A DNA stretch of 64,000 bases from Amoebophrya sp. A120 (lineage: Eukaryota > Protista > Dinoflagellata): positions 419,643 to 483,642 of the forward strand of contig CAJINV010000001.1 of assembly GCA_905178155.1 (NCBI GenBank). Direction: 5' to 3'. The notes under the pieces are model-generated. The model worked only from the letters and a program-made list of their open reading frames with translations. It searched no databases and was not told the origin of the DNA. Positions 11,901 to 58,309 of this stretch are shown here, piece by piece. Each line of letters opens with the position of its first letter. The stretch's first letter is position 1. The position numbers were made by a program, and so were the translations under genes.

Positions 11901-12833
11901 CATGGTGCTAGGTTTTTTTATCATGTGAAAGTGAATCCCGTCAATAAAATTCGTTTTGAAGCAGTATACCTTCGTCAGCGCAGTGATGCCTTCGAACGGC
12001 TTTCCGGGGGTGCCTTCGAGCATCCATCTGCCATATTCCGGCATCCACGCGCACATGTCCGCTTCCGAAAGGCCGTGGCTTCGCCCATGCGCCTCGATGA
12101 GATGGAGGCATTGGACCTGACAAAAATTTGTTGAAACGAGATATTGTCGATTTGCCCAGCGGAGTGAAGTAGAACAAGACTCGTATCAATCTGTATATGC
12201 AAAAATGTTGGGCCACTCAGCCCCCAGTTGTCCACCTATTCTCGCACTTTATCGGTATCAAATCTCTCTTACCACTTCCGGCGACCGCAGTGAGATCTTC
12301 GGTCTTCTCTTCGGATCGCTCTCGTGCCCATCCAACTTGACCAGCTGGTACTCCACCTCGTCGCCGTACTTGAGCAGATCCCCCTTGATGCCCTTCGCTT
12401 CGAAAAACACGTTGATAAACTGCTCGATCCCGTGGTCCCGAACGTACTTGAGCTTCGGGAGCGCCTGCTCCCAACTCAAATATTACGAGGAAAAATCCCC
12501 CCTCCCCATATCGAAAAGGTATGCTTCCGGAAATTTGCGCTGCTGATTTGCGACCTCAAATCACGTCTGTCTTGCAAGAAGGCAACTCGACAAGCTACGC
12601 AGCATTGTGCAGGCGGTTTGTCATGCTGTTGAGCCAACATCACGGACGCTTTTCATGCTAAGCGCCTAAGTCAAAGCCTCTCTACTCAGGCTTGATATGG
12701 GTCTGCAGTCCTCTCCAGCAAGACAGACGCGATTTGTGTACTCAAATACAGCAACACAAATCTCGCTTTCGATATGGGGAGGGGGGATTTTTCCTCACAA
12801 TATCAAAGGGGTCGACTCGACCAAGAACCCCAT
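8961..12833 (-). CDS. GCLC: Glutamate-cysteine ligase catalytic subunit (gamma-glutamylcysteine synthetase, eukaryotic type) with a long C-terminal extension
   Basis: Motifs: MGFLVESTPLSWE, KYGDEVEY, WMPEYGRWMLEGTPG, HQRFKTLTQNIRERRG, DAMCFGMGCSALQVTFQ, HWENIQSTNWQSVRWKPP, GWRVEFRSMELQMTDFENAAF. GT-AG introns 10764-10944, 11827-11969, 12117-12272, plus one introner at 12481-12802. Confidence 0.95.
12481..12802. mobile_element. Introner/MITE family A (TIR TATTGTGAGGAAAAATCCCCCCTCCCCATATC), non-canonical intron in GCL
   Basis: About 36-bp TIRs with 2 mismatches; TSD TCAAA (12476-80 and 12803-07); removal gives TPL|SWEQ. Confidence 0.95.
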
Positions 12834-21500: not shown

Positions 21501-22811
21501 TATTCAGCAGCGCTCTACCGCCTTGTGAGAGGCACGCCCCGCTCGCAGCGAGTGCACATCCCTGATATTCTCGTAGTCGTATGCCCGCCGCCTGAAATAC
21601 TGGGTGCGGCGGCACCCAATCCCGGGCCATTTGATGGCGGGGCAGGTCGTGGTGCAGAATCTCTTCACCCATCATGGGTGAAGATGTTCCAAATTCAGGC
21701 TGGTCATCTCTCCAGATGTCCATCGAGTCAGAGAAGGGATTTCCTTCCGGCTGTGGTGGACATGGCTCGACGCTGCCTTGTGCGCTCCCCTCCTCGACCT
21801 GTGGCCCGAAAGACGAACGACCTGCGCCTCGGTCTTTACCTCGGTCGTTCTCGCTGCTGGCACCTTTTAGTAATTCAACGCTGTCCGCCACTGGTCCGCC
21901 ACTGTCGTCCATCAGATTATTTTTGTTGAAGGATTATCAACTGCAGAAAGTGTGTGGGTTTGGACGAATGCCAGGTTTCTCATGCATGTTTTGCATAACC
22001 CATGATGCCTGTAATGCATGATGTTCCAAGAGCCTTGTGATGCATATGCCGCATGGGAAGCTCCCACACCGCGTCGCACCAACTGAACCCGTTTTGCTGG
22101 TCATGCAATACATTTCCTTTTTTTTTTTTAAATCCGAATTCAGCATGTCAAAATCCAACTTTCGAGAGGACACATTTTTGCAGTTGATACGGAGGAGCTT
22201 CGCGGCATCGCAGGCTTCATGTCCACCAGAAACAGGTTTGCCCCCCCGTCGTCTTTGTAATCGGACAGACCCAGACTTCCCTTGTTGTTCTGGTCGAGAA
22301 ACACGCGCTCCCTTTTCGCTGCGCCAGATGTGGCTCCGATGTCACACGGGGGCGCTACTCGCGCTAGTCGTGGGGACTGCAGGCGCGAAGTGATCTTCGG
22401 CGATTCATGTGCCGCGTCCTTGGTCGTCAAGCTGTAGGGCGCAGGCAGGTTGAGCGTCGAAGCAGGTGTCGCGGCATCATCTTCTCCTACTGTCCCCTTT
22501 ACACCTTTCGCCACTTGCTCCTCGATCGCACCGGGGGACTCCGTCTTGGAAATTGATTTACTCGAGTTAGAGGACGCGCCGTTCCTCTGTTGTAATTCCG
22601 CAACGTGGTCCGTGGACTCCTGCGGCCTTCCCTTCATCACGGCCAACGAGGAGGCTCCAGCTGCAGCGGCAGGAGTTCTCGCCACGGGGGCCCTCAGCTC
22701 TCCTCGTACTTCCCCAACGGTCCACCCATTCCTCCTGCGCACTTCGCCGCGCACTTCGCCCACGGTCCAGAGATCCGCTGGCTGTGGCCGCACGAACCGC
22801 CCGAAATTCAT
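15521..22811 (-). CDS. Superfamily-2 (ResIII/DEAH-like) helicase with a C-terminal helicase-associated (HA)-like domain, about 2200 aa
   Basis: LREYQ (Q motif), IFCGLGKT (I), VVLPTLRLV (Ia), VVFDEAH (II), YTGT (III), IIIFC (IV), LKLGVDT (V), QRFARVMR (VI-like, after GT-AG intron 19636-19908). HA-like WKLRHEECEKFRKQY...LLQWEILQ...DKLEALPGWSW. Introner 21935-22189 joins the 5' ORF. The junction near 19030-19224 is inferred, and its exact acceptor is uncertain. Confidence 0.7.
21935..22189. mobile_element. Introner family B (TIR TATCAANTGYAAAAATGTCTGGGTCTGGAAG), degenerate
   Basis: TIRs tatcaactgca.../...tgcagttgata; imperfect TSD AGGAT/CGGAG; removing 260 nt fuses ORF 22140..22826 in frame to 19861..21912. 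Confidence 0.85.
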
Positions 22812-23439: not shown

Positions 23440-26400
23440 CTATTTGCTCTTGCGATCTTCATCATCGCGACATTCGTAAGTGTAAGTGTATCTACCATGA
23501 TCTGTCGCCCACTCCTGCGTGTAGCGAATACGCGATATTTTGTCTCGATGGCTTTCCCCAGTCACCACAATGCTCCTCCCAGAGTCCTTCGTTGAAAAGC
23601 GCCCGCGGAAATCTTTCAACGTGTCTGCGGAGAACGTGCGGAGCTTCTCTTCGCCGAGCACGATTATTGGAGCGCGAAGTGTTCGGTCGTGGTTGCAGGT
23701 TACTTCCGCAAAAATCTGACTCTGCGCACACTTCATTGCATGGAGGCGACGGTTATCCAACGAGAACAACTGCAAGCCCACCTGCTGCGATCTTAAAACC
23801 TCAGGTTGCAGCCACGGCTCCGGATTGCCCGCACCAATCGAGACCCATCCGTGATCCACCTCGAGCACCCTTACCGCCGGAATTTCAAACACCGAAATGC
23901 GGCCCGCACAAATTTCAACGGCTAGGTTTGCCGGGGCTCCTTGATTGACATCACTAAACGTAGGCGAGATCGTCTTCTGCGAGAACCAGAGCTGCGACAC
24001 TCGTCGTGTTGTGTATTGCAGCATGTTTTCCGGCTCGGGCGCTTCGCCTCCTTGCCCTCGCGAAAGAGCGTAGCCGTCTTCCTCGTCCGTCTCGTGCCGC
24101 GATCGGGCTCGCACGAGGGATGCGAGGCGACACAAGTTCCCAAATGCCAGCTCAAACGGGGCACGCCGGAGCTTGCGTGCTTTTAGAGTATTTTGGTTTC
24201 GTGTCGCCTGCTCGCTAGCTTCGTCCTCAAACTTTTTCTCGATGTCAAAAGATTCATCAGCCTCTATATCATCACCCAGGCTCTGACTTAATTGCTCCAA
24301 CTGCAGCTCGCCAAATGTCCTTTCTGCATTTTTCGACTTCGGCTTTCCTTTCGCGCTTGCTTTTCTGTTGTGTGTTGCTGTCAATTTCTTCAGCAGTGCT
24401 TCTTCCTCGAAGTCAAGCTTTCCGAGAAATTTCGACCACGAAAAAAAGGATGGCTTCTTTTTCACTTGCCCCTTCTCGTTTTTCTTGACTTCTCCAGCGT
24501 TTCTTTTTCCCGCTTTCTTGTTTTTTGGCTTCTTCTTGATGTTGTTCATCGGTGGATTATCGTCCGCGAGAAGGTCGTCTTCTTCATCGATGATTTCTGA
24601 ATCCGACGAGACGGCCTGCGCTTCTTGCACACCTCCGTCTTGATCACTCTTTTCAGTCTCTGCTTCCGCCTCTATTTTCTCGGCCTCGGAGTAGGTGTGC
24701 TCCATCAAAATGGAGGACGCGTACAGCAGCAGGGCAGTCCGCAGCTTGTTATCGAACGAATGAACTCCATCTGCGGCCTTGTTGACGTTCCCGAGAAACG
24801 CCTGTCGAAGCTCCGGGAGAGTTTGTCCGTTCCACTTTGTCCACTGTGCTGCATCCTCCGACGGCAAACACTTCGGCCTCAGCTTCAAATACTCGCTTAC
24901 CGTATCCTTTGCAATTTCTGGAAGTTTCTTCGCTGCTGCCTCAAGGTGCTTCTTGGCACAGCGCGTAAGCTCTTCATGGTCCGGAGGTAATTCCTCACTA
25001 TCCTCGCCTTCGATGTCCCTCTCCGGGCCGTGCTGCGCAAAGCTGAACGCTGAGGCCAAGGCCTTCAAACTCATGCTCCGGCTCACCAACGGAGGAACAG
25101 CAATGCTCGCCCGGCTGTCTTCTTTATGCCGCTCCTTTTGGTCCGTCAGTGCCTTCAGCTGGTCGCGCGGCAGTCCACAGAAGTCCTCAAGGTCTTTTGC
25201 CTGCGCGGAAGAAAATACATCGAGAAATTTGAACTCCTTCGCGCGCTTCAAACGTTTCCGGAGTTCCGCCTGCACATCGCGTCCAGCACGCAGTTTATTT
25301 GGAGACAGGTCCTTGCCGCCATTGTTCTTACCACCGCCGCCCTCGGCGTTGTCTTCTGTGTACTTCGGCAGCAGATTGAGAATGTCGACCCCGTCCTTCT
25401 CAGCGTTCGCCAGTTTGTGCCCCAGCTCTGCGAGCTCCGCCGTTTTGGGGTGGTTCAGGCCTAGTTCTCTCGCAGCTGTCTTGTGCACTGCAAACATGTA
25501 AGAGTCTGGCTGGTTGCAAATTGTCATGCAGCTATGTCTGGATGGTGCAAAAATCTGTGATGTTGCGTGATTGCCAAATAAAAGTAGTCGGCCAAGGCTC
25601 GAGGCAGTTTTTCATGCGGCAGAGGGATGACAGAGATCTCAAAGAATCTCTCAACATGCCAGGCCTTTTATGCGAGACCTCATAGATCATGGAAAACGAA
25701 AAGCCACAACATGACACGCGTTGCATCATTCCAGACCCGGACATCTCTTCACTTGATATGTCTGGTACTTCAACGTAATCGCGCTCACGCCGTACTTTCC
25801 CGGAAACAGTTTTTGCCGGAGAAAAGGCCGCGAGAACAGGTCGAGGCACCGTCTCCAAGCTCGCATCTCGTCGCCTGAGTACTCGGCAGGGGTAGTCGTG
25901 GTGAATACATCCGATATCAGGACTTCGCTCCCAGCGAAGCTCTCAAATTTAGTTTCCTGAGCAGGTCCACCTCCCGCGGGTAGTTGTAGAGCAGCTTCGT
26001 CACAAACTACGACGTCCGCTTCTTCCTGTTCTACCACGTCACGCATCTCGATATCGGTTTGCTCAAAGTCCACTTTGCGAAGACCAGGCTCATGCGCATT
26101 TTCATCGGCTTCGAATAAGTTTTGTTCTTGATCGGACGCCGCGCCCCCTAGGTCAGCATCTTGCTGCGCCTCTCCTTCAAACACGTCTTCGGGCTCCGGC
26201 TCCTCTGCTTCGTCATCGGATGCGTGCTCGGAGAGGCACTCCGCGGCAGCCACGTCCGCGTCCTCCACGAAAATTCCGGAACCGGACGCCTCGGGAAACT
26301 TGCTGTCTGGCATGGCGCTGGTCACCAAGGAGTTCCAACACACCCAAAACTTGTCCCCGTCAAAGTCTCCGTGGCTGCCCTCGATGCTCCCGCACACCAA

Positions 26401-28949
26401 GACGTTCTCGCACGCCATGGCGGCCCGGACCGTTTCCGCACGCTCGGCGATGGCGTGTCGCCCGAACAGCATGTTGCAAGCCTCGTAGCAGGGCATCTTC
26501 ATCGCCAGGAGCTTCTGCCCCGGTCGCAGAAACTTTCCCCCAAAGGACAGAACGAACTCGCCGGGCTTCAGGGTTTGCGTCAGATCCGGCTGGACCACGA
26601 AGTACGCCGACTCAGCGCAGGCGAAGTGCTGCTTCTTTACAATCGTGCGCAGCTCGGCCGCTAGGGTTTTGTGGAAAAGCTCGGCAACATACGGCGTGTC
26701 CAGCTGCAAGCCGCTGGCGAGCATATACTGCATCTTTGCCATCGGCGCGCCCGTCCCTAAGAGTTCCGCAGCCCCAGTGTCAGTGAAGACAAAGCTAGTC
26801 TTCTGCCGCCCAAAATCGTCGAGCTCGCAGTCTTTGAAGATCCTCTGAATGATGTTCCGGACCGTTGCGTGGGCCAGCTTTTGAAAGAGCCGCTTTGCTC
26901 TCCTCGCCCCCCCGATGTGGTGTTCGAGGATCAATATGCTCTCGCTGTTCAGGCTTGCTGGCCGTGGGGCGCGTTCGTCGGTACGGCCGTCGACGGTGAC
27001 TTCCAGGTCGATCTTGTCCCCCTCCTTGCGGCCATACATCTCCGGCCACTTATTTGTTGACTTCGACATCCATTTCACCATGGATTTGCGGAGGACAATG
27101 CGCCGACCAGTGAGGTTGTGGCTGACCACGAGAATCCCGCGGGCCGGCCCGATGCGAACCTGTATCAAATGTAAAAATGTCTGGGTCTGGAAGGTTGCAA
27201 CTTGTGATGCTGTCTTTGGAAGGTAAAAAAAATCTGTATTGCATGACCAGCAAGAGGAGTTCAATTTGTGCTACGCGGGGTGGGCGTTTCTCATGCGGAA
27301 TACGCCTCAGAAGGCTCTTTAAAAATCTGTGATGCTAGGTCATGCATTACAGGCATCACGGGTCATGCAAAATATGGATGACAAACCTGGCAATCTTCCA
27401 GACCCAGACATTTTTACACTTGATAACCTGGACGCACTGCAGATTCCCTTCTATCTTCGCAGTGTTGACATCGGCATTTTTAGCTTCACCAGAGCCGCTC
27501 GAAGGAACTAGAGACGTGTCGTCAGCCGCATCCAGCGCGTTGTCCTGCACTGCGTCCGCATCACGACTCGAAGGAGCAAGAAGATATTCTCTCGGCTCGG
27601 CCAACCCGACGCCATTCCCCGTTGAAAATGTATCCCCTTCGCTTTCGAGCAACTTCTCGTCATTGTCGTGTAGTGTCATCTGTGCCGGAAGCTCCTTGCC
27701 GCTCCGATTTCTCCAATCGCTTGCACTTTCAGTTTTCCGCTTCTTCAAGGCACTGCCGCCGTCACCACAGGACTCTGCTTCTTGCTGCTGCGCCGCTTCC
27801 GCATCGCCCTGAAGCGTTTCGCGTTCGTCCTGATTGGGAGCCATAAGGCGTTCCTGCACCTCCCACATCAACTCGGGAGAAATTTCCCCGTTGCCGTCGG
27901 TTGCACAAGGTCCCTCGACGTCTTCCCTGATGTCGATTTCACTCGAGTCGAGCTGTGCTACCTTGGTCGTAGGGGAAAAGAGCAGCTGGAACCGCGACGC
28001 CCACTTTCCCAGGTGCATCGCTTGAACTTCGTGGTCTGACAAGGGCAGGTGCCTCCGCAGGACCTCTTCGACCGAGATGCCGTCGGCGCGGATATAGTGG
28101 AATAAAAAGTTGCCGCCAACTTTGTGGTGAGAAACCAGTTTGTTGTAAAAACGGCCCTGGCGGTCCTGTACCACAGCTGGCGGTGGAACACCGTCTTCCA
28201 CAAAGACCTCGATGTGGGTTGGTCCGGACAAAATCCGCCGCGCTGCCATCCGGCGAAATCGGCAATCACCTCCGATATACAAGAAAAAACGGTGTGAGTG
28301 TGAGTCTGGGATGCAGAAAATGCAAAATACCAGATACGCTTGTCATGCCAGACAACCACGAGAACCTCTTGTCATCATATGTGTTCTCACGTCTTTCTAC
28401 GGGTTGTGGTTTTCTCTGTCATGCAGAACGAATTTGTCATGCTGTCAACCCAAGAAAGTTGCCCTCACCTACGTTTTTTCCTGGATATCCAAGGTCGAAG
28501 TAATACTCTTTGCGGGGGCGCCGATCAAGGACGTTAATGGTTCCTTCTCCCCGGTCATCAAGCACTTCGGTGACCATGGTGTCTTCGAGCACCTTCTTCA
28601 TGGCAGCGCGGTTTCCGATGATTTGCTTGTTAAACCGCACCACCCGTTGTAAGTCACTGAACCACGTGCGCTCCCAGTTTCCCTTCGTGGGCATTCGGCC
28701 TATCAGACGGCAATAATCGGCAGAAGTCCCTTTCTTTGCCTTTTTCACTAGCTCCCCGTTCTGCAGCTGCTGCTGCTTTTCTATCCACTTGGGGCATAGC
28801 TCTGCGTCGCCTGTGAGAATGTCTTTTACGGCACATTTGTTGTACCTGCCGTCCTTGAGGTTCTTCAAAAGATCCAATATGTTGGATCTGACTTTCAACT
28901 CCTGGAGCTCCATTTCGGATACCTCCATCTTCGCTCTCGGCAACGACAT
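23440..28949 (-). CDS. Eukaryotic RNA-dependent RNA polymerase (RDR/QDE-1 family), DFDGD catalytic loop
   Basis: TDGNGEIS, QVRIGPARGIL, LRKSMVKW, LNSESILILE, PDLTQTLKPGE, GSHGDFDGDKFWVCWN (DFDGD at 26353-67), GLNHPKTAELAEL...EKDG. Three introners removed in frame. Confidence 0.9.
25482..25758. mobile_element. Introner family B (degenerate left TIR) in RdRP
   Basis: TSD TGTCT (25477-81 and 25759-63); removal gives LKYQT|AARELG. Confidence 0.85.
27163..27425. mobile_element. Introner family B in RdRP
   Basis: Near-perfect 31-bp TIRs; TSD ACCTG (sense CAGGT); removal gives LQCVQ|VRIGP. Confidence 0.95.
28276..28487. mobile_element. Introner family C (TIR TATNCARGAAAAAA..GTG) in RdRP
   Basis: TSD TCCGA/TCCAA; removal gives YFDLG|GDCRF. 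Confidence 0.9.
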
Positions 28950-29574
28950 GTTAGTGCTGCATCGAACAAATAGAATCTTTCATCAAAATCTAGTGACAGT
29001 ACAAACAATCAGCAAGTGCTGACAATTGTGAATAGACAATCTATCAAAACGACGATTCCGACCACAGGAAAACAGTGACAGACTAATATGCGACAGGGAG
29101 CCGCCGCCCGGGTGAGAGAAAGATGAAAGAGCGCCAAGCCAACAGTGAGAAAAGAGAAGAGATCATCCACTTAGATCCAGTTTCACACAAACTCTGTTGT
29201 AGATCGGGAAACAAGATCTTCAACTAGATCTAGTAGACTGGTGGTCCTTGTCATCCCTGTGCTGATTCAAACCCGAGGATCGTCCGGAATGTAAGTATCA
29301 AAACTCGTTAATGAGAGGCCACGTTCGAACGACGGATCCAACGACCTAGAACAACACGGAACGCACGCAAGAACATACAAACATAAAACCGTCTCCGTCA
29401 GCCCGTATGAGTACGCTTTCAGATGATCGACAGCACTCTGCTGTGAGACGCCAAAGTAAGTGAATCTTTGTTCTCTGAAGGAGACAACCCTTTGTTTTCA
29501 TATTGAATTTTGTCAGTCTTCCTGCTCGGTTCCGCGGCACTCTAGCAGAGGCAATATCTGGCTTTTGCCAAAAG

Positions 29575-30790
29575 TGCAGTCGAGCTGCAATCTTGTGATT
29601 GCAATATTCATTGGCTCGTCTTCGCACCACAAACAACATAGAGAAACGAGTTTGGTCAACCATAATCCATACATCTGGTTTTTCTTTTTCGCAGTGAAGA
29701 CGAACTTACTTGTTGGAGTATTGAAACTTGATGCGCCCACAAATACCGCTTTGAAGTCTTTAGCGCCATTCGCTTTATGCGCCATCTTTGTACCTCTCAG
29801 TAGAGCGAAACTCAATGGGCTTTCCCTTCTTCATCCCCACCCGCCAAGGGCCGCAATTGCCACCTCTTCCGCAATGTGGCGGGCGGGCTGTTGACGTCGT
29901 GGCTTTACTCTACCCAAGGTGCTACTTCTGCCAACTGATTGTTCCCGCAAATGCTCAACATAGCCGTAGGGAAGTTCGTGCTCGGATGCCGAAGTCTCCT
30001 CCACAGCCGTAAGCAGTGAATTCGTTTGCGCGCCGGCCCACCACGAGCTAGTATCGGATCTACCGAATAGCTCGGATCTCCCGAACCTGGCCGGGGTTCT
30101 CATTTGCTTCACCTCCTCCCGTCCTGGATCCAGACCCTCGTCAATATCGAATGAAAACTTGTTCCCCGTTCTTTCCTCGCCTGGTGTCGGGCTGCTGCTG
30201 GTCTCGAAATGCACATACAGGCCACGGTCCAAAGTAGGCTGCAGGTCGTGTGCAAAGAGGCTGCTGCTCAACGGCAACATCGGAGGTCGTACTGCTGCCA
30301 TTTTTATCAGCGACCCCGAGCTGAGACTGCTCGTGCCGGACAAAGCGGCGGTTGACGAACAAAGCGTGTCATTGTCGAAACCCCGCTGCCTGATCTCTTC
30401 CTTCAGCTGATGTAATTCTCGCACCGACACGACTTCGCCGCTACTTTCGTCCGAAGCTTTTTTTAGAGCTCCTTCGTCTACTGCTTTAGCTCGAGATACT
30501 CGCAAAGAACCCGCAGAGGCCGAGGACAATCGTCGACAAAGTTTGTTAACCTGCCCTGGCTTCTTGGCGTTTCCTATCTGCATGTTCGACAGACGCGCCA
30601 CAAGCGGCTCCTCGAGGTTCAGCGAGTCGAACGTGGGAGCACCGGGCGGCCGCTCCTGTCGCTGCTCTGCGAGAAGCGCTCGCTCCCGGGGTCGAATGTC
30701 CAGGCGGCGTCCGAATGGAAGCAGTGAGGCTCCTGTTGTAAAAGCGAGAGGTAGTGGATTACTAGTTCCTTGTACTCAAAAGCTCAGATT
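29575..30790 (+). repeat. Direct repeat copy 2 (matches about 13425-14735)
   Basis: Shared coding and flanking sequence. This copy lacks the family I element and has a short in-frame duplication (GRSELFGRSD). Confidence 0.9.
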
Positions 30791-31040
30791 CGCTGACAAA
30801 TTTCAAATTCTGAGATACAACCGCACAAATAAACACGTTTGTCACAAACACTCTGCGTAGCAAGATCTACTTTGTACCATGGTCGTGCAGCAGCTCCTCC
30901 CTGCTCGTAGCGTCGACGCTCATCTGGAGACGCAACGACAAGGCAGTTCCGTAGGGCACTAGCGGAGTAAGGCCAAGGGCAATCACGACGATTTTCGTTG
31001 CGATAACCCACAGAGGTGGTGCGCGTGCGCCGCGGTGCAT
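29831..31040 (-). CDS. Putative secreted hypothetical protein, 354 aa; exons 31040-30878 and 30732-29831
   Basis: ATG 31040 MHRGARAPPLWVIATKIVVIALGLTPLVPYGTA (signal-peptide-like); phase-1 GT-AG intron 30733-30877 joins in frame to ORF 29831..30601. Confidence 0.7.
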
Positions 31041-31611
31041 ATTTTCGTGAAAATGCGGTGGGGACCGCAGCTAGGAGCAACTCTGGCGTAGGAAGCACGT
31101 ACCCAGCAGTGGGTAACTACTATTTTCAAGGCACGGCGGACGCGGAGTTATCCCCTACTACCTGTTACAAAAAGGAGTCTTCTAGCATTGCATCGGACAC
31201 CAGCACAGAAACCTACAACGTTTGAAAAACATTGCAATAACAGCGAAGCCGTGACGATAGGTGAACAGCGACAGGCTACTTCTTGGTAGACATCGACGCC
31301 AGAACTGGACGGACAAGGAAGTTCACGCGGGTGATGATAAAAAAAAATCATTCCTTTCTTGAGTCAATACTGTGGCAGATCTAGATGGTTTCTTGCAAGG
31401 CAAAATTGTACGGGTGTAAACAGATACAGGGACAGATACATCAGGCCCAAGCAGACTACAAAAGTACGTATTAATCGAGAAGACTTTTCGTCCAACATGA
31501 TCATTTTGTGTAAATGTTCGCATGATACCGAACTTGAGACTGTCATCTTTATGTTCTTCAAATAAATGTGTTCTTCTAAAAACCGTGTAGTTTTTTCCGT
31601 ACGACTCCTTT

Positions 31612-34600
31612 CTACAGTACCTTTGTGTATAGGAAAGTTGACACGAAGTACCGCAGGCAAAACGCTAACAGACTGAACATCGCCTGCGCTATTAGCAAGA
31701 CGATTACCAGAGTCTCTTCGTTCATGGGCCCGAAAACATACAAAACAAAATTAATTAGAGTCAGATTACTAATCCTGTATTCCTTCTTTTGTTCCGAGGC
31801 AACTAGTGCCTGTGATGTACTTGTCCTCCCCATAGCAGCCCCTTCCGCTTCTGAAAGAGACGACCTTGTCGTTGGCCTCTGCTTCAGACTCGTGGTTGAA
31901 TAGTTCGACGCTCGACTGATCCTCGCTGCGCTGTCCTTGCTCGCCTGCTGCACAAAATGAATGTCCTCGTCGTCGTTGTCGTTCGCGTTGAAATCATCTT
32001 CTTGCTGCGACGACGAAGCAGCAGCGTCGTAGCTGTTACCGTTATCAGAAGCTGCGCTACCTTCTAGTGCAACCGTTATTTCCTCAATCTTGCAGAGCCG
32101 GAAGGTTTTGTAGACGGAAAACACTAGTCGCCCGGCGACGGAAAGCTCTTCTACCCGCACGGTGGCGAAACTATTCACGCTCACGTTCTTCTCCGGGTCA
32201 AAACCGGGCAGGCGGTGCCGCGGGCACTCGACGAGCCGGAAGAGTTGGGGGAGGCCGTAGACGAAATTCAATATTTGTGGGAGCAGGAACAGCAGCAGAG
32301 TTTTGCTGTAGTGCCCAAAAATCCCAGCGACTGCAAGGGTCATGCCCGCGAAGTAGCAGAAGGTATCGCCGACAAAGACGCGGCTTGGATACCTGGTTAT
32401 AAAAAAATATTTTTGGGGTTTACAAAAACTTTTTTGAAATCAATGACTTTCCGCTGCTGCGTGCACGTTCATGTTCATCATCATCAATTACGATGAAGCT
32501 ATAATCGCGCCCAGACGAAGAAGTCAACAAGAACAACAATCCGTTCCGCATGACTATAAATACCAGTTGAATTTCAGCAAACCGAGCGTGACCGCGACGA
32601 AGGGTAAGAGGATGTACAGGCTGAACAGATGTCGCTCCCGGCCCAACGCAAATTCCTCAGGTAGCCTCGCGAGTTGGATCAGATTGTTCAAGATTAGGGA
32701 AATCGCGATGATCAGGCTCTGTCCCGCCTCCAACCCGTTGACCCCCGCGTAGATGTTGATGGCATTCACACTGAAAATCGTGATCATGCACAGAAACAGG
32801 TAAAAAAACGGCCCCAGGTCAATGATGTCGAAGGAGAAGATCCACCGCAGCGGCAACGGGAGGAGGACCGATGTTGTGCCCAGCGTCGCGAAGTAGACCT
32901 TTTTAGAATGTAGTTCTGAATGCAGTCAACATACTAGAGCGTTGGTTCTCTAGCACTCCGAAATCCACAGGACCACAGGGATGAGAACAGATGCCACGGT
33001 ATTAGGAGACACGTCGTGGATAACAGTGTAGCAAGAACAGCGCATCACTACGTTAACTCATACCAGCAACAGTGGCAAACTGGCTAGAGTTATCAAATGT
33101 AAAAATGTCTGGGTCTGGAAGAATGCATGTTTGTCATGCTTTTCTGGCATGACTCTTAAATCTGTCACGCACGTTACCCAAGAGCTCAATTTTTCTGTGA
33201 TGCAGGAACGCAGTTTGTCATGCAGCATAGGCAACACCTAGAAGCTCAGAAACTTGTCATGCTGAGCCAGCATTTGTGGCCTCATCATGAGACGCCACCC
33301 AACATCACAAGTTTCCAGACCCAGACACTTTTACATTTGATAAGAGTTGGTAAAAGCAGCTTGTCTCGCCACCTCAAATTCAGCACGTTGTCTACGAACC
33401 CGAAGAATATCAAATGTAAAAATGTCTGGGTCTGGAAGATTGCCAGGTTTGTCATGCACATTTTGCATGACTCCTGATGTCTGTGATGCATGCCCTAGCA
33501 TCACAGATTTTGTGAGGGCTTCCTCATGCCTATACCGCATGACAAATGCTCTTTCCGTGTAGCAAAACTTGGACTTTCTTTGCTGCTCATGCAATACAGA
33601 TTTTTTTAGAATCCAAAATCAGCATGACAAGTTGGATTCTTCCAGACCCAGACATTTTTACAGTTGATAAAGAAGCTCATACTGCAAATCGACAATATTG
33701 CGGCCAAGAATTGCACCATGCGCGAGAAGGAGTCGACATCTTGCTGCAGTTTCTGCGCAATGATCTGCGCTGAGCCAATGGACGACGCTGTAGTTCCCGG
33801 GATGAAACTACTGCCACTGAAGAGGTCTGCGCCAACATTATTTCCCTGGTCTCCTCCCGCTGCGATCAAGTTGTTTGGCGATGCTTTTTCTAATTCTTGC
33901 TCAATTAACCCCTCCTGGCCGACTTGGAAGAAGGAGAAAAGCCAGCGTGTGAGGGAGTTTGTGTAGTAGTCACCCGCACTTATTGCGTAGTTGCTCGTCC
34001 CGGCCGCCCCGTTAGTGAAACCATTCGTGGTCCCACTCGTCGGGTTCGAAGATGAAAATGCGGATAAAAACGCGAAGGGGAGAAAAAAGGTCACGCAGAA
34101 GCAGTACACCACTCCTGGGATCACCCCCACCGCTTCGGGCACTTTGATCCCCTGCACCGGTCGGATCAATGACCCGTCCGCATTCCTCGCTGTCGTCCTC
34201 TTTGACAAATCGATCCCGAACAGGCCGGCGTCGACGAATTTGGGCGCAAAGGCCGGTATGATTCGGACGACGAGGGAGTAGCCGAGCAGGGAGAGGAGAA
34301 TGCAGGCGAAAAACGGGAGATTCAGCACCGTATTACAATGAAAAATGCCCCCACCCCCGAACTTGGGAGAATTTGTATTGCAAACCTTTCCAAATGAAAC
34401 ACTCACCCTCTTGCATCTATCAGCATCAGAGGTTTCCAATCGTGAACAGCAAGAATGTAGTGTATTGCAAAAGACCCCAGCAAGAGCGGCGCTTGTCATG
34501 CAAGCGATGCGATACACGCCTAGACCCTGCATCAGAAAGATTCATACTCCTTTCATGCATGACAAAAAGTCTTCATTTGGACACTTCGCATCACAAATTT

Positions 34601-34738
34601 TTACAATTTAAGGGGTGGGGGGCATTTTTCACTGTAATACACCGTTTTCAATAACCTCTGTTTGCTCTCCGTGTCAGCTAAGACGAGTGGCACTACACCT
34701 GCGACTGCGGTCAGTGCGGCAGTGGTCACGCCCAGCAT
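31612..34738 (-). CDS. DPAGT1: UDP-GlcNAc:dolichyl-phosphate GlcNAc-1-phosphotransferase (ALG7/DPAGT1)
   Basis: [113 protein letters not shown] introns 32393-32563 and 32899-33063, plus three introners. Confidence 0.96.
33091..33342. mobile_element. Introner family B in DPAGT1
   Basis: TIRs tatcaaatgtaaaa.tgtctgggtctggaa; TSD AGAGT. Confidence 0.95.
33408..33669. mobile_element. Introner family B in DPAGT1
   Basis: TSD AAGAA; removal gives SMSF|FGFVD. Confidence 0.95.
34331..34639. mobile_element. Introner family E (TIR TATTACARTGAAAAATGCCCCCACCC) in DPAGT1
   Basis: TSD CACCG; interior highly similar to 61239-61536. Confidence 0.95.
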
Positions 34739-36305
34739 TTTTGCAAATGCTGACGAAAAATAGGCAGGGCTGGGAAAAAAGGTCGATGTCGCTCTTTCTC
34801 GTGCTGCCACGAGTGAAGCGTTCCTTCTTCAATCCGACTTTTTCTTTTGTTTTGGATCTTCCAGGCAGAAGCACGTCTTGTTGTCCTCTGTTGGAAACTG
34901 AATCACCGTCTCTACCGAGGCGATGATGTGGGAACTTGAAAACAACTGGTCTGTCTGCAGTAGTAAGTACTCCTCGCACTTTCTCTTCCGTCGTTTCTCT
35001 CCCTGGTGGAAAAGGGCTGCAAATCTTCTTCCTTCACTTCACTTCGGCCGACAGATGCTTTTCCTGGAGATAAAGGTACAGATTCTGGTTCGTTGGTAGC
35101 ACCACGATAAACGTTGTCCTACTTCTTTGTCTTCGTTCCGCTCTGCTACGCACCGACCGGCTTGGTTTTCTGCATTCTACCAGAACCGGAAAGGGCAAGT
35201 CAAACCCGCAAAGGCGATCCCGGCCCGACTGGCAAAGATGGTGACAACGAGGCTAGCAATGGATTGAGAATCGAAATATTTTCCTTTCGTAGTTTAATTT
35301 TTGAGTTTTTTTTTCTTTTTTGTCAGGAACGGGAAAATAAATTTGCGCAGGATACTATCATCGTCATTCTCTTGTCGGAGTTGAGGAAGTACTTAAGTAG
35401 CTGAGACTGAAATGCAGCTTTCTTGCACGACGTACTCGCAAACAGGGTCACACCTTATACATAGACACATCAGAGTGAAGACCAAAACCAGTTGTAGTAA
35501 TGTCGTCCCCTAGAGTTATTTGATAAATGTATGAAGGTCATCGAAAAACAAAAATCACGACGAAAAATGGCAAGCCAAACAACAAAAAACAATACAACGT
35601 CAACGTCGCAACAAAAATGCATAACATCAATCCATTTCTGGAAAACCCACAACAGATTTTGCCTTCCTAATCCGTTGCAACAAGGACCTCAGAGGATAGC
35701 CACAGCCAACTAAGCCACAGGACCCATTAAAACCTAGAGCGGAACCGTCAGAACAAGATCTTTATCTGCGGCGGAACCGAGTACGACATATGCACAACAT
35801 CTATACAGATACAGGACGTCGAAGCTTAGAAGTAGACCAAGACTGTCTCAATTCATCAAACGCAGTTCCTTTAGTAATTACACAGAATGTCGCTCGTGCT
35901 TCGCATGCTAGCTTTTCGAACAGGATGTTTGCGGCGCTGCATTTTCTTTCTTCGCACAAATCAGCCGTACTAAGGCCAAAACAAGGCTTCATTTTCACAC
36001 CAGTATGCAAATATTGTGCGCGCAAGCATTGAACGATGAAAACCCCTGTTTATAGTAAGTATCGACTAAAAAAACGCAAGCAGTTGGTTGGCAAACAGAC
36101 TTTCCATCCGTTTGAACAAGAGAAGTCAATTTTTCGTCGTGCGTTTCAGAAAGGAGAAGCAAAACCTTGATCCAGCAGAAATTCAAATTGCACTCTTTCG
36201 AATCCTTCAATAAAAACTGCACCTTGTGATGATGTTGTTGAAATGCCTTCAGATTCAGATTTGTTTCGAAATATGCACAACGGCGCCAAAATAAAATCCT
36301 CGCAG

Positions 36306-44856: not shown

Positions 44857-45520
44857 GTTTTTTGATGTGCGGTCATGGGAAAGTTAATGGCATGCATGCG
44901 AAATTCATTTTAAATATCGGCGGAAAAATTGTGAATTTGCATGCCGAGGAAAAGGAAAAGCTAACTTTCAAGTAGGTAAATAAAACGAGCTACAGGATCT
45001 ATGCCTTTTTCTTTTTAACAGGGGCGTCTCCATCGAAAGGGGCAAGAGAGGACCAACGGGAGCGAACTCCATTACGGGGTTTTTAAAATGTCACTCGCGT
45101 AGCCCTGACTTCCGGTTGTGGTGAAAAAAAATTCCTTTTACCAAAAGCTGCACACTTGAACTATTTCTTTGAAACCCCTCACGACGATGTCGATTTTGCA
45201 ATTTTATTGAACAGGTACTACTAGTCCTGTCAATCGATTTGTAGAAAGCGCCACGTCCTCGTGCTGATCTTGAGCGGAGGAGAAGATGGAATTTGACGTC
45301 AGAAGGGCGAAGTTTCTGATCCATTTGATCAATTGTTTGTCAGTTGCGAAGTTCATCTTTGATCCCGCTTCACTGCAGTGTAGTCTGGACCCAGAAGTGC
45401 CACTTGAAGCAAGTAGCACCCTGTTCCATACTTGGCTATTTATTTTCCTCCAAGAATTCTGTCGCGCGACCTACAGTTGCCTTTTCATCATGTTCTTGGC
45501 CTTTCGTACAGTTTGCCACT

Positions 45521-48500
45521 TCATGAAAAAGCCTCTTTCGCTTCCGGCGAGATTTTTCTTGTCGGACTTGTATCCGGCGTGTCCGGCCTTCCCGGTCCCT
45601 GCCCACCGCCGGGGGTGCTGGGTGTTCGGTTGTGGTACAGATCCGGCGTTCTCACATTATTGTTGCCTTTCGACGTCGTGCTACTTCCGTGTTGTACGGT
45701 TTGCGACCAGAAGCTGTCCGGGTCTTCCTCGGCGTTGTTCTCTAAATCCCAATCAACCACGTTTCCTATCGTCACCTCCGTTTGGTTTATCTGCTCGGAG
45801 TAGGCCATCTGGTGGGACCGGGACGACGGCGCCCAGAGATACATCATGGTGAGCAGCACCAGTAAGAATAAACAGTGCGGGATCATGTCCGTGAAAATCC
45901 TATGCAATGCAAAAATGTCTGGGTCTGGGAGATTCCGATATTTGTCATGTAGTTTTTTCAAGCTCCCCCACGTCTGGAATGCAGGGCCTAGCATCACAGG
46001 TTGTGCAGCTCCTTGGTGATGCGTATTCTGCATGAGAAATGCCCTCTCCAGCATGGCCAGAAGTGGGCACCTTTTGCACGTTCTGCATCACAGATCTTTG
46101 TAGGATCGGAAACACGCATCACAAGTTCGCATGCTTCCAGACCCAGACATATTTGCATTTGATAAATCCACAAAGACGCCCATTTCTGCCGGGACAACTG
46201 CTTCTCGATTGCGGTGGAGTAGCTGTACAGCTGGTAGAGAAACGAGATCCCGAGAATCACGACGGACAGGACCAAAACTTTCCAAAACTGCAGATACAGC
46301 TCCAATTTCGCGGACTGCTTGGTCTGCTCCAGATTGACCAGCAAGGAGGACAAAGACACAAAAATCCAGTACAGTATCCCGCCGTGCAAAAACGCGACCG
46401 GGATCAAGCAAAGCAGCACGAAGGAGAGCGGTAACACCATCGAGTGTCTAACCGACAAAACAACTTCCCTAACCCCGTCGAGCAACAGGTACAAAAACGT
46501 CAGCAGTTGTATTCGGAAGATGGTGTTCCTCGGCAGCGTTGGCTGCGTCACGCCCCAGCCCAGACTGGCGAGGAGCACGAGAACCTGGGAGAAGATGTTC
46601 TTTGCCACCGTCGCGAGGATGCAGGTGATGAAGAGCACGTAGGGGCGGATTCCCGACTCGTTCCATTCGCTGTAAAAGATGTACCACAGACTGCACTCCA
46701 CCAACCCGGAGAGGATCACGCCGCCGATGCAATATGCATTCCAAAATGTCTGGGTCTGGAAGCTTTCCAGGTTTCTCATGCATATTTTGCATGACTCAGG
46801 ATGTCTGTAAAAATGCATGATCTAGCATTACATATTTTTAGAGGCCTTCCTGATGCCTATCCCGCATGACAAATGCCCTCCGCGCGTAGCACAAACTGGG
46901 CTCCTCTTCTTGCTGGTCATGCAATACAGATTTTTTTAGCATCCAAAGTTAGCATGACAAGTTGCAACCTTCCAGATCTTCCAGACATTTTTGCAATCCA
47001 TATGCAACCGTGGATGGCGAAAAGTTGCTTCCACCAGAAGAGGCAGCGGAACAACCAGTAGAGCACGAGATATTGAAGCGTCAGGATTGAAATCGACCAA
47101 GACAAAGTTGCAATAATTTATCATGCATAAATTGCAAGGCATGGAGTGCCTCTCTTGCAGGGATGTCAAGCGATGCCGACTGTCAGCCTGTTTGGGGTCT
47201 GCGATAGAGCTGCTAAAGTAGCATGACAAAAGACGCCTTCTGTCCCTGAACAGCATGACAAACTGGATGTAGACGGTGTCGAAATTTGTCATGCACTGCT
47301 TGGAAATTGGGCTTCCAGCTGGTATCGATTTTATGCATTACAAGTTGTTTTACCTTTGTCGATTTCAATCCTGACACTCCCATACAAGAACCACGTAGGT
47401 CAATGTCAGCCAACCGTACAGAGGCCACTTGTGGTAGCTGTGATTTTTATTTCATTGTGAACCATACATGGGTACAATTTTTGCATCGGCTGTACTGGTG
47501 GATCACCTCTTCACAGGCATCTAATACTAATCAACTTCAACGTCAGGATCAGGAGGAAAAATCGCAATAGCAGTACTCGACGCCCGGAAGGTATCCGAAG
47601 GGGTTGCGAACGACAATATTGCCCGAAATCTTGATCTTCTCTTCCTTCCCACAATTGCTGTAGATCAGCAGGTATACACCTGAGAATTTTTTATTCGATT
47701 CTGGTTCAGCGATGCAGCAGTTGTTCGAGATACTGTTCATCCTCAACCTCATGCTCATCGTGGAGGCCACTACAAAATAATTTTGTAGTGGCCTCAACTT
47801 TAAATTGAGAACCAAGTGGCTGATCAGAACGATGGCAACACTACATCATACCGCTCTGCGTCATGTTTCGTCTGATGTCCTGCGGAGGTTGCAACGTCGG
47901 GGAGACAACATCAATCGATAGCGCGGTTGGCGGCCTCGTTTTGCCCAGCGGCATGTATCCTGTGGAAAAACGTCCCCACCCCATAAGTAACCAAGATGGG
48001 AAATCTGCTACACAAATCCACAAGTTTTGGCTGTCGAGCATGACAAGATCTGGGACAAATTGACTACACTACTATCTTATCCATATCCTGATTCTAGCAT
48101 GACAAAATCCGAGATAGCATCAGAACATGGCTCTCATGTTGGGGCTGCGCATGAGAGACATTTTAGGCTTGCGGATTTGCATGACAACTATGGGGCGGAG
48201 ACGTTTTTACTCAGAATAGCAGGTTTTGGTATTTCAACTTATCCTCCTTGCAGTTCTCATCGTTGGGAAAGCAGCAAAAGTCGGTCTTGTTATCAAGTGC
48301 AAATATGTCGGGGTCTGGAAGATTGCTGAGGTTTGTGATGCTGTGTCTGCTTGACACAGAAGGTGTGCCATGCAAGGACTAGCATCACAGGTTTTGAGAC
48401 GGTCTCCCAATGCCTAATTCGCATGACAAACGCCTTCTTTCGGCGACAGGAAAAGGAGCTGAGCTCCCTTTGCTGTCCAAGCATGACAGATTTTTGTGTG

Positions 48501-49023
48501 GTCTAAGTATGCATCACAAGTTCGCAGCCTTCCAGACCCAGACACTTTTGCATTCGATACTTGTCCACATGGTGCAAAAAGTCACGATACGTGATCAGCG
48601 TTAGCTGCACACCCTTGTAATGCTCCAATTCCTGATAGAGTGTAAGGTGATTTTTCAAGTAGATATTACATTGCTGCTAAGTAATAGCTAATAGCCAGTA
48701 GCAAGCTGGTACATCACCTGCCCGACCTTTCTGTATGTAGGAAACAAAAAAGCCGGATGTTGCGCATGCGGATAATGGTGCACAATCAGGAGGCTCAATA
48801 CTGGTTTCGACTCCGTTCTTCTGAGCTCGTGAAAAATGACGAAGGCCTTCGACTGCGGACGTATTTTCGCAGGCGCGTCTTGCTCCGAAAAAACGTAAAA
48901 CGCTTGCAGCACGTGGAGCGATCGCGCACTGGGTACGGCTGCATTCTCGAAGGGATAGATCTGCGCGTGGGTCAAGGGTAGAAGGCTGAGGAGCGACGTC
49001 AAAAGCGACGTCAAAGTGACCAT
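45521..49023 (-). CDS. Lung seven-transmembrane receptor (GOST; TMEM87/GPR107/PTM1-like) protein
   Basis: Signal peptide MVTLTSLLTSLLSLLPLTHA; GVYLLIYSNC, RNPFGYLPG, WKQLFAIHGCIGGVILSGLVEC, LLASLGWGVTQP, WIFVSLS..LEQTKQSAKLELY, MYLWAPS. GT-AG introns 48632-48801, 47680-47851, 47438-47576, plus five introners. Confidence 0.88.
45901..46164. mobile_element. Introner family B
   Basis: TSD AATCC; removal gives SLWI|FTDM. Confidence 0.93.
46733..47002. mobile_element. Introner family B
   Basis: TSD TGCAA; removal gives HGC|IGGV. Confidence 0.93.
47071..47384. mobile_element. Introner family F (TIR TATNGNAGYGTCAGGATTGAAATCGAC)
   Basis: TSD CGAGA/CAAGA; removal gives YVVL|VLYWL. Confidence 0.92.
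47956..48218. mobile_element. Introner family D
   Basis: TSD GCATG/GCAGG; frame restored (YQNL|PLGK). Confidence 0.9.
48291..48559. mobile_element. Introner family B
   Basis: TSD CTTGT; removal gives HVDK|TDFCC. Confidence 0.93.
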
Positions 49024-52897: not shown

Positions 52898-53220
52898 TAT
52901 GAAAAGGAAAAACCCCCCCTCCCCATATCAAAAAGGAAATCTGTGATCCTGGATTTGCGTACACAGTTCAGATTTGTATTGCAGGAAGGTATTGCGGCCA
53001 GATCCCCAGGCTAGGTAGGGGCGTATGGGTCTAGTTGCTCAGCATTGCAAACGGCTGACCTTTAGGCCCAACAGCATGGCAAATCGCTTCCATAATGGGC
53101 CGGAAGCTTCTGCCCTTGTCTTCTTGCAAGAGAAATGTGATTTGTGACCTCAAATCAGCAAAACAAATTTTCGGAAAGATACCTTTTCGATATGGGGAGG
53201 GGGGATTTTTCCTCTCAATA
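52898..53220. mobile_element. Family A element in a gene-poor region
   Basis: Family A TIRs; TSD TCATG (52893-97 and 53221-25); no convincing host gene. Confidence 0.92.
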
Positions 53221-55758
53221 TCATGGTCGATTTGATTCCTACATCTCGGACAGTGAATCAAGAAAATACGTATCGCTATCGCTTTGTTTGCTCCTTTGGT
53301 GATCTGTCCGACGAAACAAAATACGGTCAGCGACCCTTTAATAAGGTCTTCCCTTATGTGAGATATCGCTTCTCCTACTCTAGACTTAGAGCACGAGTGG
53401 TAACATTCATCCAAGGGATTAAGTTCGTGGCCGCGAGGCCAGGGAGCAAGCCTAGTGAATCAAAATTTTGACGCACTTACTGCTGTTGCCGGCATTTCGT
53501 CCTCATATTGTTCTGGGGTGTACTTATCTATCTCTGTAATTATTTCGTACAAGGTAAATACTAGCCATACTTTTCTGCTTCGTGAAAAACTGATTCAGCG
53601 TTCTTTTTTCGAGACCAATAGAAACGTAGGTCTAGTCACGTTCTGACTTCAAGTTCAGATACCATTTTGTGCCGCAAAAGTCGAAACCTTTGCCACACGC
53701 AATCTTGTCGACCTCGGGGTCGGCCCTCCGAGGACAGGCCTCCGCAGAGAGTTTTCTCGTCGCAAAAGCGCGACTACACTGTAAGCATAAAAATAAACTG
53801 AAATCCATTCCTGAATACCTGCGTAGCTTTGTTTTGCTTTTCATTCTTGTGTTAGGAAAAATAAAAATTGAAGTTCGTTGTGGCTTCGAGAAGGAAAATA
53901 AAAGAGCTGCAACGTATATTTTATGATATGACCACGAAGTTGTTTTCAGGTGCGAATTTTTTATCCCTAGATTCAGCACCAAAATCTTTATCTTTTGTTT
54001 CCATAAAATCGACTTTTCTACAATTATATTTCCGCTGGTGTATTGAAACTGACCCCTTCGCTGCCACGAAAACAAATGTCCGAAAACAGCGGGAGATGCA
54101 ACGTCAACTGATGTTGACAGTGGGGTAAAAATAAATATTAGGGCTAGGTATCGACTAAAGAGATTGGGACTTGGTGTGCTACCTCAAATGCACTTCCGAA
54201 CCGGTGCCAGCGCTTCTAGATCTGGCGTCATACAACGAAACCATCCATAATACATCAAGCGGTGGATGGTGTTTGCAGAAGCTGCTCGCGCTCATGCGTC
54301 TAGCTTTTCAACGACTAGCAAAAAAAAGAACTGAAAAAATCACACTCCGACATCACAGAGGACGTCAGAAGTGAATCTTACTTTGAGGGTGTGCTGTCAT
54401 TTGTATGTTCCTAAAAAAAAATGAAAATGCCGAGCCCGAGTCAGCGTAAAATCATTCGGGAAGATGAAGATGATGCATTTTTTCCAGAAATAGTGCCTAT
54501 GTGCCGATGAAATCAGGATAGCATATCAACTCTTGTTACATGCCCACTAGCAGAAAAAGTCATGTCAATATTTATTTTAGCAGAAAAGGTTTCATTATCG
54601 TTGAAGCAGAATGTAGTAAGCAGAATTGAAAGACAAGAGAATAAAGCAGGAGTTGCAACGAAATATCAATTTAGGTCTTGTGAAAGCATAAATTTCTCGA
54701 ACGCACGACCTGGTGCTAGATTGTGTACTCACTCTGGCCGGTGTACGTGTACGTACTTCTGGCAAATCGATATCAGCGGTCGCCTCAGCAATTGCACTTT
54801 TGCAAGAGCGATCCTGCGGCTGGTGTAAGTATGTCTGTAGTACAAAAAACCCAAGCAAAACTATCGAGAGATTATTTAATTTTTTTTCGTGAATCATCTT
54901 CAAAAAAGGTTGTAAAAATTTGAAAAAAAAAACAAACGAAACCCAAAAAGAAATCAAGTTTCTTAGTATGTTGGTTTTAGAAACTGCTCGATGGTCACTT
55001 TACTCGAAACTGGAAGTCAAGCCGGGAAGTACAGAGGGCAAGCTTCATTTCCGATGTATTTCTTACTGACGTATCATCATAGGATCCTGTTTGCTACTAC
55101 AGTCGTCTCACTCCATCGCTGCACTTCCAGTATTTGACTCCGCATGATAGGCTCCTGCTCACGACAAGCTAAGTTACTAACTGTCATTTCATCTCGCAAG
55201 GTTTTTTTTTTGTGCCGGGGCCTCCTGATACTGTTTCTCATTATGACAGCTTCTGTGGAGCTTTTGTCCTCTATCACTTCTCGCGCTCCCCTCGTGCCGC
55301 AGCTACAAGTGTAGTCCTATCTTCCGGGGGTAGTAAGTACTCATGATCAGATCTCATCTATCATGCCCACGAGAGGAAGAAAAAAATCGAGGGGTCCTCT
55401 GCCTTGGCAACTATAGTACCATTTGCAATACCTGAAGGTGGGGAAAGAATCCTTATTTCGTGCTAGAGAAGTAGGTAACATGCAAGAAATCAGTGCTGGA
55501 AATGGAGGTTGTGTCTGTCTACTTGCAGCTCAGATCTAAAAATTCATCAGCAACATGGTACACAAAAATCACAAAATTCGTATATTACCTTCGGCTCTCT
55601 TCGCCTCTTCCAGTTTCTGTAATTCGCGAGCCACTTCCTTGGCTCGGGTGGTGATCTTTATCAGATTCTCCCGTGTCAAAGGATACGCTTGCTGTGAATG
55701 ATTTTTCGATTTCAAATAATTTGTTTTTTTCCTCAATTGATCGCTTCTTCTATTATTT

Positions 55759-57621: not shown

Positions 57622-58309
57622 CTCCAAATAAACACGAAAACCAAATAAAGGGACAAAACATCAAGAAACAACTAACAACTCACAAAATGAAGCAACTTCG
57701 GGCAGACAAAAAAACGCGAGGCCAAGAAAGAACCAACTCTGGGGTCTTCTTCTCACATCGCCGTGCTCTTCGCTCACTCCTTCGCTTTATTGCTCAGAGT
57801 CTGCTCGGTCGTGTGGGCTACTTATATATATTTCCTTAGTTGTAAGTATGCGGGTACTTAAATTGAATTTTCAGATCTTCGCGTTATTCGCGTTGCGTCC
57901 TACTACAGTATGGTGGTTTTTATGACATTTGAAATTTTTGGGTCTTCGAGTTGGAAGTGAGGAAATAAAGATCTGCACGTTTACGAAACGTAGAATCCAC
58001 CCCTCGCCAACGCAACAAATCACCACGAAGATTTTTCGTGAAACCACACAAGACGGACGCCGGCACAGCAGTAGAAACCGTCAGTGACGCACAGACAGAA
58101 GCGACGCAGAAGCCGAGGAAGCGGAAGTAGATGCGGTGTAGTTTATTGTCTTGCTCCTCGATACCGATAGGGCAGCATGTTGACCATATGCGAAAGACTC
58201 TGCTACCGCTTGTTGATCTTCTGCTTGAAGAGGTTGTACACGACGTGTTCATCATGAAAGAAGAAGAAGAAGAAGTACACTAGCAGCTGATGAACCTTTA
58301 AGTTTATTA

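Follow-up and report, generated by a model that had tools for sequence, protein, structure and literature searches.

Introners of the dinoflagellate Amoebophrya sp. A120 are described in the text of the genome paper as RNA-supported, hairpin-forming introns of ~240 nt with inverted repeats (TAT, seven variable nucleotides and a run of A) and direct repeats of 3–5 nt, the splicing of which was left unexplained (Farhat et al. 2021, PMC7789003). A 64,000-nt stretch of the same genome (contig CAJINV010000001.1, positions 419,643–483,642; hereafter the window) holds elements that almost certainly belong to this class: the host is Amoebophrya (the GCS gene product finds its closest named match, at 74% identity, in Amoebophrya sp. 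A25), the inverted repeats are of the TAT type, the borders carry repeats, and the elements recur as non-canonical introns with RNA support. Where the published description gives inverted repeats of 8–20 nt and a variable splice position, the window elements have terminal inverted repeats (TIRs) of ~30 nt, a strict 5-bp target-site duplication (TSD) and a removed stretch equal to the element plus five nucleotides. Nothing is stated about element orientation in the text of the genome paper (figures apart), where 'orientation' concerns gene clusters (PMC7789003). Here, copies of the same families are lost from transcript contigs in both orientations, and the elements are probably removed at the RNA level in a manner defined by their TIRs and independent of orientation and target sequence.

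Several described systems share part of this behavior. Classes 1, 2, 3, 6, 7, 8, and 10 of the introner-like elements of Polarella glacialis are TIR/TSD introns found in either orientation, and the introners of Aureococcus anophagefferens are likewise reversible TIR/TSD elements (bioRxiv 10.1101/2020.10.14.339549). As given in that text, the GT/GC/GA-AG sites of both lie in the element or come from a constrained TSD, and an orientation bias is reported for Polarella classes 6, 8, and 10, whereas the elements studied here, which also act as introns in both orientations, have an unconstrained TSD, lack canonical sites from either source, and show no bias; the GT/GC…AG borders of U2 introns occur only by chance, as at the copy starting at 27163. 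Nonconventional euglenid introns are alike in a TIR stem that joins the ends (predicted for the window elements), TSD-like repeats, non-canonical borders and a wide length range; the euglenid introns have in addition a pyrimidine/purine border consensus and are excised as circles, and orientation is not taken up in that text (PMC11282704). The introns of Fritillaria borealis are also derived from miniature inverted-repeat transposable elements (MITEs), with TIRs, TSDs, and non-GT-AG borders, but are spliceosomal, with AG-AC/AG-AT borders and a TAC target preference, compared to no border or target preference here (texts of PMC11282704 and PMC13326754). Family 38 of Amoebophrya A120, which is Ginger-like (PMC12130899; Gozashti et al. 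2025), consists of TIR DNA-transposon introners of the same lineage and may offer a lead to a mobilizing partner, though no ORF-bearing copy was found here; as its methods text describes, the pipeline took 5′-to-5′ matches only, which would leave inverted copies ungrouped. The symmetric stwintrons of Hypoxylaceae, described as canonical introns without a TSD, were considered and did not match (text of PMC8469720). In the text of the openly accessible articles, figures and theses apart, there was no report of orientation-independent Amoebophrya introners. By that literature, the elements and reversible introners as such are already known, and what is new is reversible, unbiased, target-independent removal.

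A search for TAT…ATA pairs with a 5-bp flanking duplication returned 27 matches in the window (25 clear) compared to 1–7 in five shuffled sequences. Two weak matches (11919 and 47448) were discarded as probable chance and three copies were added by homology (21935, 25482, and 63529), giving a final set of 28 elements. Each TIR spans ~25–36 nt and consists of TAT, seven variable bases, an A run and then family-specific sequence. Outside the window, 138 loci with a family B end were taken from metagenome contigs of another assembly, in which ~370 such stretches are estimated to occur, and yielded 251 elements, 210 with flanks; none of these loci matched unique sequence of the window over any great length, and the family B end motif was not found in viral contigs. 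Across 114 copies, A occupies positions 11–15 in 76–96% at both ends (TAT being the search condition). In the outside loci, the TSD is exact in 59 of 65 B-type end pairs and interior length is unconstrained (109–631 nt, plus one 972-nt copy in an RPB1-like gene). With TIRs, a fixed-length TSD, short length, no coding capacity, and multiple copies, the elements have the properties of MITEs. No ORF-bearing or transposase copy was evident in the long TIR-bounded stretches of three of the 138 loci (L044, L047, and L074; the listed ORFs were short in two). The 972-nt family B copy (L047, 3001–3972; TIR match 25/25) carries ~700 nt of unrelated insert and lies in what is, judging by its motif, probably a conserved stretch of a gene for an RNA polymerase II largest subunit-like protein.

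The motif TGTSATGC or its complement (GCATSACA) occurs 70 times within elements (7,330 nt in total) but has a single occurrence in the remaining 56,670 nt. It is common to families A–D, peaks ~40–45 nt from each end (e.g., 27204–27211 and 33448–33455), shows no strand preference (164 vs. 152 over 114 host-oriented copies), and is a candidate transposase or splicing-factor site. Additional TAT…ATA families with unrelated TIR bodies have the same ends and 5-bp duplication (47071–47384, 56319–56540, 60732–60880, 14199–14351, and 37721–37891), and a further family B copy at 63937 is interrupted by the window end.

With inverted repeats at both ends, only the interior of a copy reveals its orientation. 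The original prediction held that the family B element at 27163–27425 is the reverse complement of that at 33408–33669, and the two align end to end on opposite strands (83.3% over 263 nt, E = 7e-76), with the interior it had quoted visible in the alignment; with 45 nt cut off each end, the interiors score 157 in opposite and 23 in same-strand comparison (shuffle maximum, 28). Profiles built solely from copies outside the window place family B on the plus strand at 21935, 33408, 45901, 46733, 48291, 60276, and 63529 and on the minus strand at 25482, 27163, 33091, 56891, and 60919. Family A is inverted as had been claimed, on the plus strand at 12481 and 61838 and on the minus strand at 52898 and 59888. 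Direct comparison of 59888 and 61838 is weaker (z = 9.3 opposite, 6.0 same), while their profile scores are clear (174.6 vs. 17.3 bits and 56.0 vs. 9.6 bits). The proposed check of orientation against host strand was tallied in the outside loci, where removal is predicted from the reading frame: among 50 family-assignable copies, 26 lie one way and 24 the other (two perhaps represent one locus), with 16 and 14 for family B. A dyad-symmetric signal had also been proposed. This is borne out for the ends (114 copies) and not for the interiors, which are not palindromic overall (scores of 15–41 against their own reverse complement and 126–466 against themselves) and hold a short motif repeated in both directions.

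Removal was followed in contigs from four runs of one sample (X1–X4), the RNA nature of which was a guess. The contigs behave as mRNA, as GT-AG introns are skipped (five introns, GT-AG on the minus strand, in contigs that also skip elements, over positions 52300–64000) and one element-free contig has a poly(T) loose end. Over the same interval, joints at nine elements skip 328, 227, 258, 328, 287, 303, 325, 290, and 278 nt, every one equal to the element plus five, with 5–6 letters that fit either side. In an 8,607-nt contig from X3, 59882 and 61537 are separated by 322 nt, the exact sum if 60732 and 60919 are also lost, bringing the elements removed in this form to 11 of 11 (nine by listed joints, two by length), and a single contig loses all ten copies of the gene with an RRM_2 domain. 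Between 19500 and 39000, at least three of ten elements are removed, among the joints listed; in the DPAGT1-like gene, the 84 nt observed in an X1 contig equals the 84 nt expected without 33408 (forward), 33091 (reverse), and one GT-AG intron. Overall, 14 window copies show transcript-contig loss of exactly the element and one TSD, in both orientations of both families (family A: forward 61838, reverse 52898 and 59888; family B: forward 33408, 60276, and 63529, reverse 33091, 56891, and 60919), which agrees with the predicted removal in either orientation. Contigs of X1 cover the interior of 25482 at low depth, possibly reflecting retention or another locus. Raw RNA runs from a different strain (X9 and X10) gave just 141 and 4 partial matching reads, all on TIRs; ~60 of the X9 reads link one flank to a family B end (27163–27211, 33621–33669), i.e., one retained or untranslated-region copy.

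Reading frames give a second view of the same offset. As had been predicted, the host genes of 27163 and 33408 are both on the minus strand, with RdRP (RNA-dependent RNA polymerase, PF05183) and glycosyltransferase 4 (PF00953) matches in minus-strand ORFs, and the canonical introns of the transcript contigs read CT..AC on the plus strand, in agreement with minus-strand hosts. Deleting each element with one duplication yields minus-strand frames of 1590 codons (three elements), 1154 codons (eight elements), and 910 codons (21935); the 1154-codon ORF, together with one contig, confirms that 59888 and 61838 lie in one gene. At 27163, the shorter open-frame side reaches 444 codons at +5 and ≤37 at +0, 1, 3, 4, 6, and 7, a control that is uninformative for 33091 and 33408, where the exons are too short. 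The RdRP profile is matched at positions 95–184 upstream of 27163 and at 190–367 on its downstream side; a long stretch of low complexity precedes the junction, and no homologue spanning it was among the longer proteins searched; frame and Pfam match together suggest that this copy is removed. In the outside loci, the frame is restored in 88 of 210 copies at +5 compared to 2–3 of 210 at +3, +4, +6, and +7, and a first codon model built from the window only, which called 19 of the 210, favored +5 in 18.

Because the cut may fall anywhere within the duplication, all registers were listed. None of the 14 RNA-supported copies has a GT-AG or GC-AG register, with one GA-AG and three AT-AC pairs at differing offsets. 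Canonical registers occur in two of the 23 window copies examined (27163, GT-AG; 36366, GC-AG) and in six of the 88 frame-restored outside copies, against a chance expectation of 6.4%. TSD letters are near random, the sense 5′ and 3′ ends are alike at all of the first 30 positions (114 host-oriented copies; smallest p = 0.08), and branch-like YTNAY words are similarly placed on the sense and antisense strands, with no sense-specific peak. A terminal stem is predicted for most copies on both strands, including the sense strand of 27163 (z = −8.8) and 33408 (z = −10.3), with 0 of 200 shuffles as good.

As a mechanism, small non-coding copies of a TIR transposon would sit in exons either way round. 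As the TIRs and TSD suggest, a transposase of the cut-and-paste or copy-paste kind would have inserted them at cuts staggered by 5 nt, and a machine recognizing nothing but the mirror-image ends would excise them from pre-mRNA. Predicted pairing of the TIRs gives a stem of ~30 bp, which would bring both duplications together, and the cut would be set by a fixed 5-nt offset from the stem ends; symmetric ends and offset must define the cut, as these are the sole invariant border features. Removal at the RNA level is most likely. For the chemistry, we lean narrowly, at roughly even probability, towards a modified major spliceosome lacking U1, for which the stem and the TAT/A-tract ends would set the position, because of the Fritillaria precedent and because the absence of detectable U1 tracks with non-canonical introns, U1 being described as undetected in two non-canonical strains and found in a canonical-intron strain. 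A stem in which any branch point near the 3′ end would be buried weighs against this lean. The original prediction took reversibility as a pointer to structure-guided cut-and-ligate chemistry, a step that is not supported: a TIR reads the same 5′ to 3′ on both strands, polar signals within it are reversible by construction, as with the canonical sites of Polarella and Aureococcus introners, and reversibility therefore cannot decide the chemistry and shows only that the signal is located in the TIR. The better argument for unusual chemistry, which had not been raised, is the lack of a canonical register.

It is possible, though held more tentatively, that a non-spliceosomal second mRNA splicing system recognizes the symmetric stem formed by the TIRs and, at a distance of 5 nt, ligates exon ends of any sequence. 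Under such a system a transposon family would, with the same reservation, go unseen wherever in a coding sequence and whichever way round it inserted, and the 5-nt measure may correspond, at the RNA level, to the 5-nt stagger of the cut made by the transposase itself. Perhaps exons are cut next to the stem and joined by a structure-guided endonuclease with a ligase, or else by a transposase-like protein that has been domesticated, with the element set free in linear or circular form, an account to which we give something like one chance in three. It accommodates canonical dinucleotides that are not above chance at any register, ends without 5′/3′ polarity, YTNAY words equal on both strands, and the near-random TSD, and euglenid TIR introns are described as leaving as full circles rather than lariats (PMC11282704); against it, no candidate enzyme was found, with no genome-wide search made, polar signals inside the TIR would make reversibility equally expected, the non-canonical TIR introns of Fritillaria are spliceosomal (PMC11282704), and detectable U1 was lost alongside non-canonical introns. 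Ordinary spliceosomal introns, with GT/GC-AG sites built from TSD and TIR separately for each orientation, have precedent in Aureococcus and Polarella and would suit 27163 and 36366 (2 of 23 copies), but the absence of GT-AG or GC-AG in 14 of 14 RNA-supported and 82 of 88 outside copies, at the chance rate, and the unbiased orientation here compared to the bias of the Polarella classes make this the least probable account of all. It is refuted as a general explanation, though individual copies, 27163 for one, may be spliced in this way.

Excision at the DNA level in a transcribing stage, as with internal eliminated sequences, would mean that the mRNA never held the elements, and would fit the transposon-like ends, the exactly restored target, and, through DNA symmetry, the reversibility. 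This alternative, also offered in the original prediction, is very unlikely. Contigs of a run that behaves as DNA at single-copy depth (X5) enter elements from their flanks, extending 24–26 nt into 27163 from both sides and reaching into 33091, 33408, 34331, 36366, and 38467 at a depth of ~40–43; no empty-site joint was among 15 of 360 joints listed for this run, the contigs of which drop rare variants; the second assembly likewise retains elements within coding frames; and the element-free contigs are also without GT-AG introns. The joints might instead be jumps of reverse transcriptase over a hairpin between 5-nt direct repeats, with the mRNA keeping the element and the ribosome bypassing it. 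A hairpin with a direct repeat is a classic template-switch substrate, and any 5-nt duplication holds one whole in-frame codon that could serve as take-off and landing site. All RNA evidence comes from cDNA-derived contigs, and such jumps would be reversible without splice signals. Skipping would need to dominate, as one contig drops ten elements and all four runs are in agreement wherever they have coverage, and bypass would have to be near-perfect for conserved genes to tolerate inserts that break the frame in their thousands; to our knowledge, bypass elements are far shorter than 150–970 nt. Jumping with bypass is accordingly judged improbable, on a par with excision from DNA.

Some observations do weigh against TIR-defined removal from RNA. 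Skipping of a repeat-flanked hairpin during cDNA synthesis would give joints identical to those observed, and the contig-only data of X1–X4 allow no splicing efficiency to be read by orientation. In the sense direction, 27163 has the TSD CAGGT, which makes a GT-AG intron possible and, having been missed in the original prediction, makes this copy the worst example for its argument. Retraining of the frame model for the outside loci used loci from which elements had been removed at +5, a choice that somewhat favors +5, and 122 of 210 outside copies are without a frame call. Selection on the stem as RNA is weak: G-U pairs outnumber A-C mismatches 110 to 84 (p = 0.07), 46 to 24 at positions 16–25 (p = 0.012, one of three bins), and 43 to 30 at positions 16–30 in the outside loci only (p = 0.16), and left-right similarity within copies is 23.6 of 27 compared to 23.3 in permutations. 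Lastly, one end of 25482 reads TGT and no terminal stem is predicted for this copy, yet it lies inside the RdRP ORF.

Table. Coordinates of introners and host genes in the window.
Feature	Position	Orientation or strand	Structure and context	Evidence
Family B introner	27163..27425	reverse	263 nt, TAT...ATA; TSD 27158-27162 and 27426-27430; RdRP gene	
GT-AG reading of the 27163 copy	27165-27432		shifted within TSD (register 3)	
Family B introner	33408..33669	forward	262 nt, 5-bp TSD; DPAGT1-like gene	lost from X1 contig 4, as seen from both piece and length
Family B (subfamily B2) introner	33091..33342	reverse	gene of 33408	32.5 bits on minus, none on plus; removed by length
Family C introner	34331..34639		DPAGT1-like gene	X1 contig skips 34326-34639 = 309+5
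Family B introner	25482..25758	reverse	decayed TIR (one end TGT); RdRP gene	ORF restored on removal
Introner	28276..28487		one TSD mismatch; RdRP gene	
Family A introner	12481..12802	forward	near start of minus-strand glutamate-cysteine ligase gene	
Family A introner	52898..53220	reverse		joint 52892-53221 skips 328 = 323+5, 4/4 runs
Family A introner	59888..60210	reverse		joint skips 328 = 323+5, 4/4 runs
Family A introner	61838..62157	forward	gene of 59888	joint skips 325 = 320+5, 3/4 runs
Family B (B2) introner	56891..57143	reverse		joint skips 258 = 253+5, 4/4 runs
Family B introner	60276..60557	forward		joint skips 287 = 282+5, 3/4 runs
Family B introner	60919..61173	reverse		X3 contig has the 322 nt expected on removal
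Family B introner	63529..63801	forward		joint skips 278 = 273+5, 3/4 runs
Family B introner	21935..22189	forward	diverged TSD	910-codon ORF restored
RdRP gene, cellular RDR type (PF05183)	23443..28979	minus		1590-codon ORF after removing three elements
DPAGT1-like transcript (PF00953)	31334..35380	minus	name DPAGT1 from the original prediction	three introners and two GT-AG introns removed
Large gene, Mei2-type RRM_2 (PF04059)	55586..64000	minus	ten introners and GT-AG introns; extends past window	
Ten introners of the RRM_2 gene	56319, 56891, 59888, 60276, 60732, 60919, 61239, 61838, 62591, 63529			
Five-introner cluster	45901..48559		B forward 45901, 46733, 48291; others 47071, 47956, each with two differing TSD copies; GOST-domain gene on minus	

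Elsewhere in the window, the domain-bearing ORFs found were all on the minus strand, like the unidirectional gene clusters of dinoflagellates, and a 1973-codon ORF lies at 1–5919. A Prp18 gene (42862–44883; PF02840 and PF08799), for a spliceosomal second-step factor, has a 674-codon ORF without introners. Two duplicated segments (13630–14695 and 29830–30746) share 83–96% identity ~16.2 kb apart, with the element at 14199 inside one of them; a second copy of the GCS N-terminus is present at 14761–14835.

The removal of tens of thousands of non-canonical introns in Amoebophrya is a problem that the text of the genome paper leaves unexplained (PMC7789003). One family in both orientations inside a single gene amounts to a natural experiment. 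The findings eliminate the interior and the target sequence as carriers of a polar signal and confine the signal to ~30–45 symmetric nucleotides and a 5-nt offset. For annotation, family clustering that is aware of orientation splits families, and the rule of element plus five is missed by gene finders. If true, sequence-blind, stem-guided joining would be a new splicing chemistry, and would explain how transposons invade exons without coding cost.

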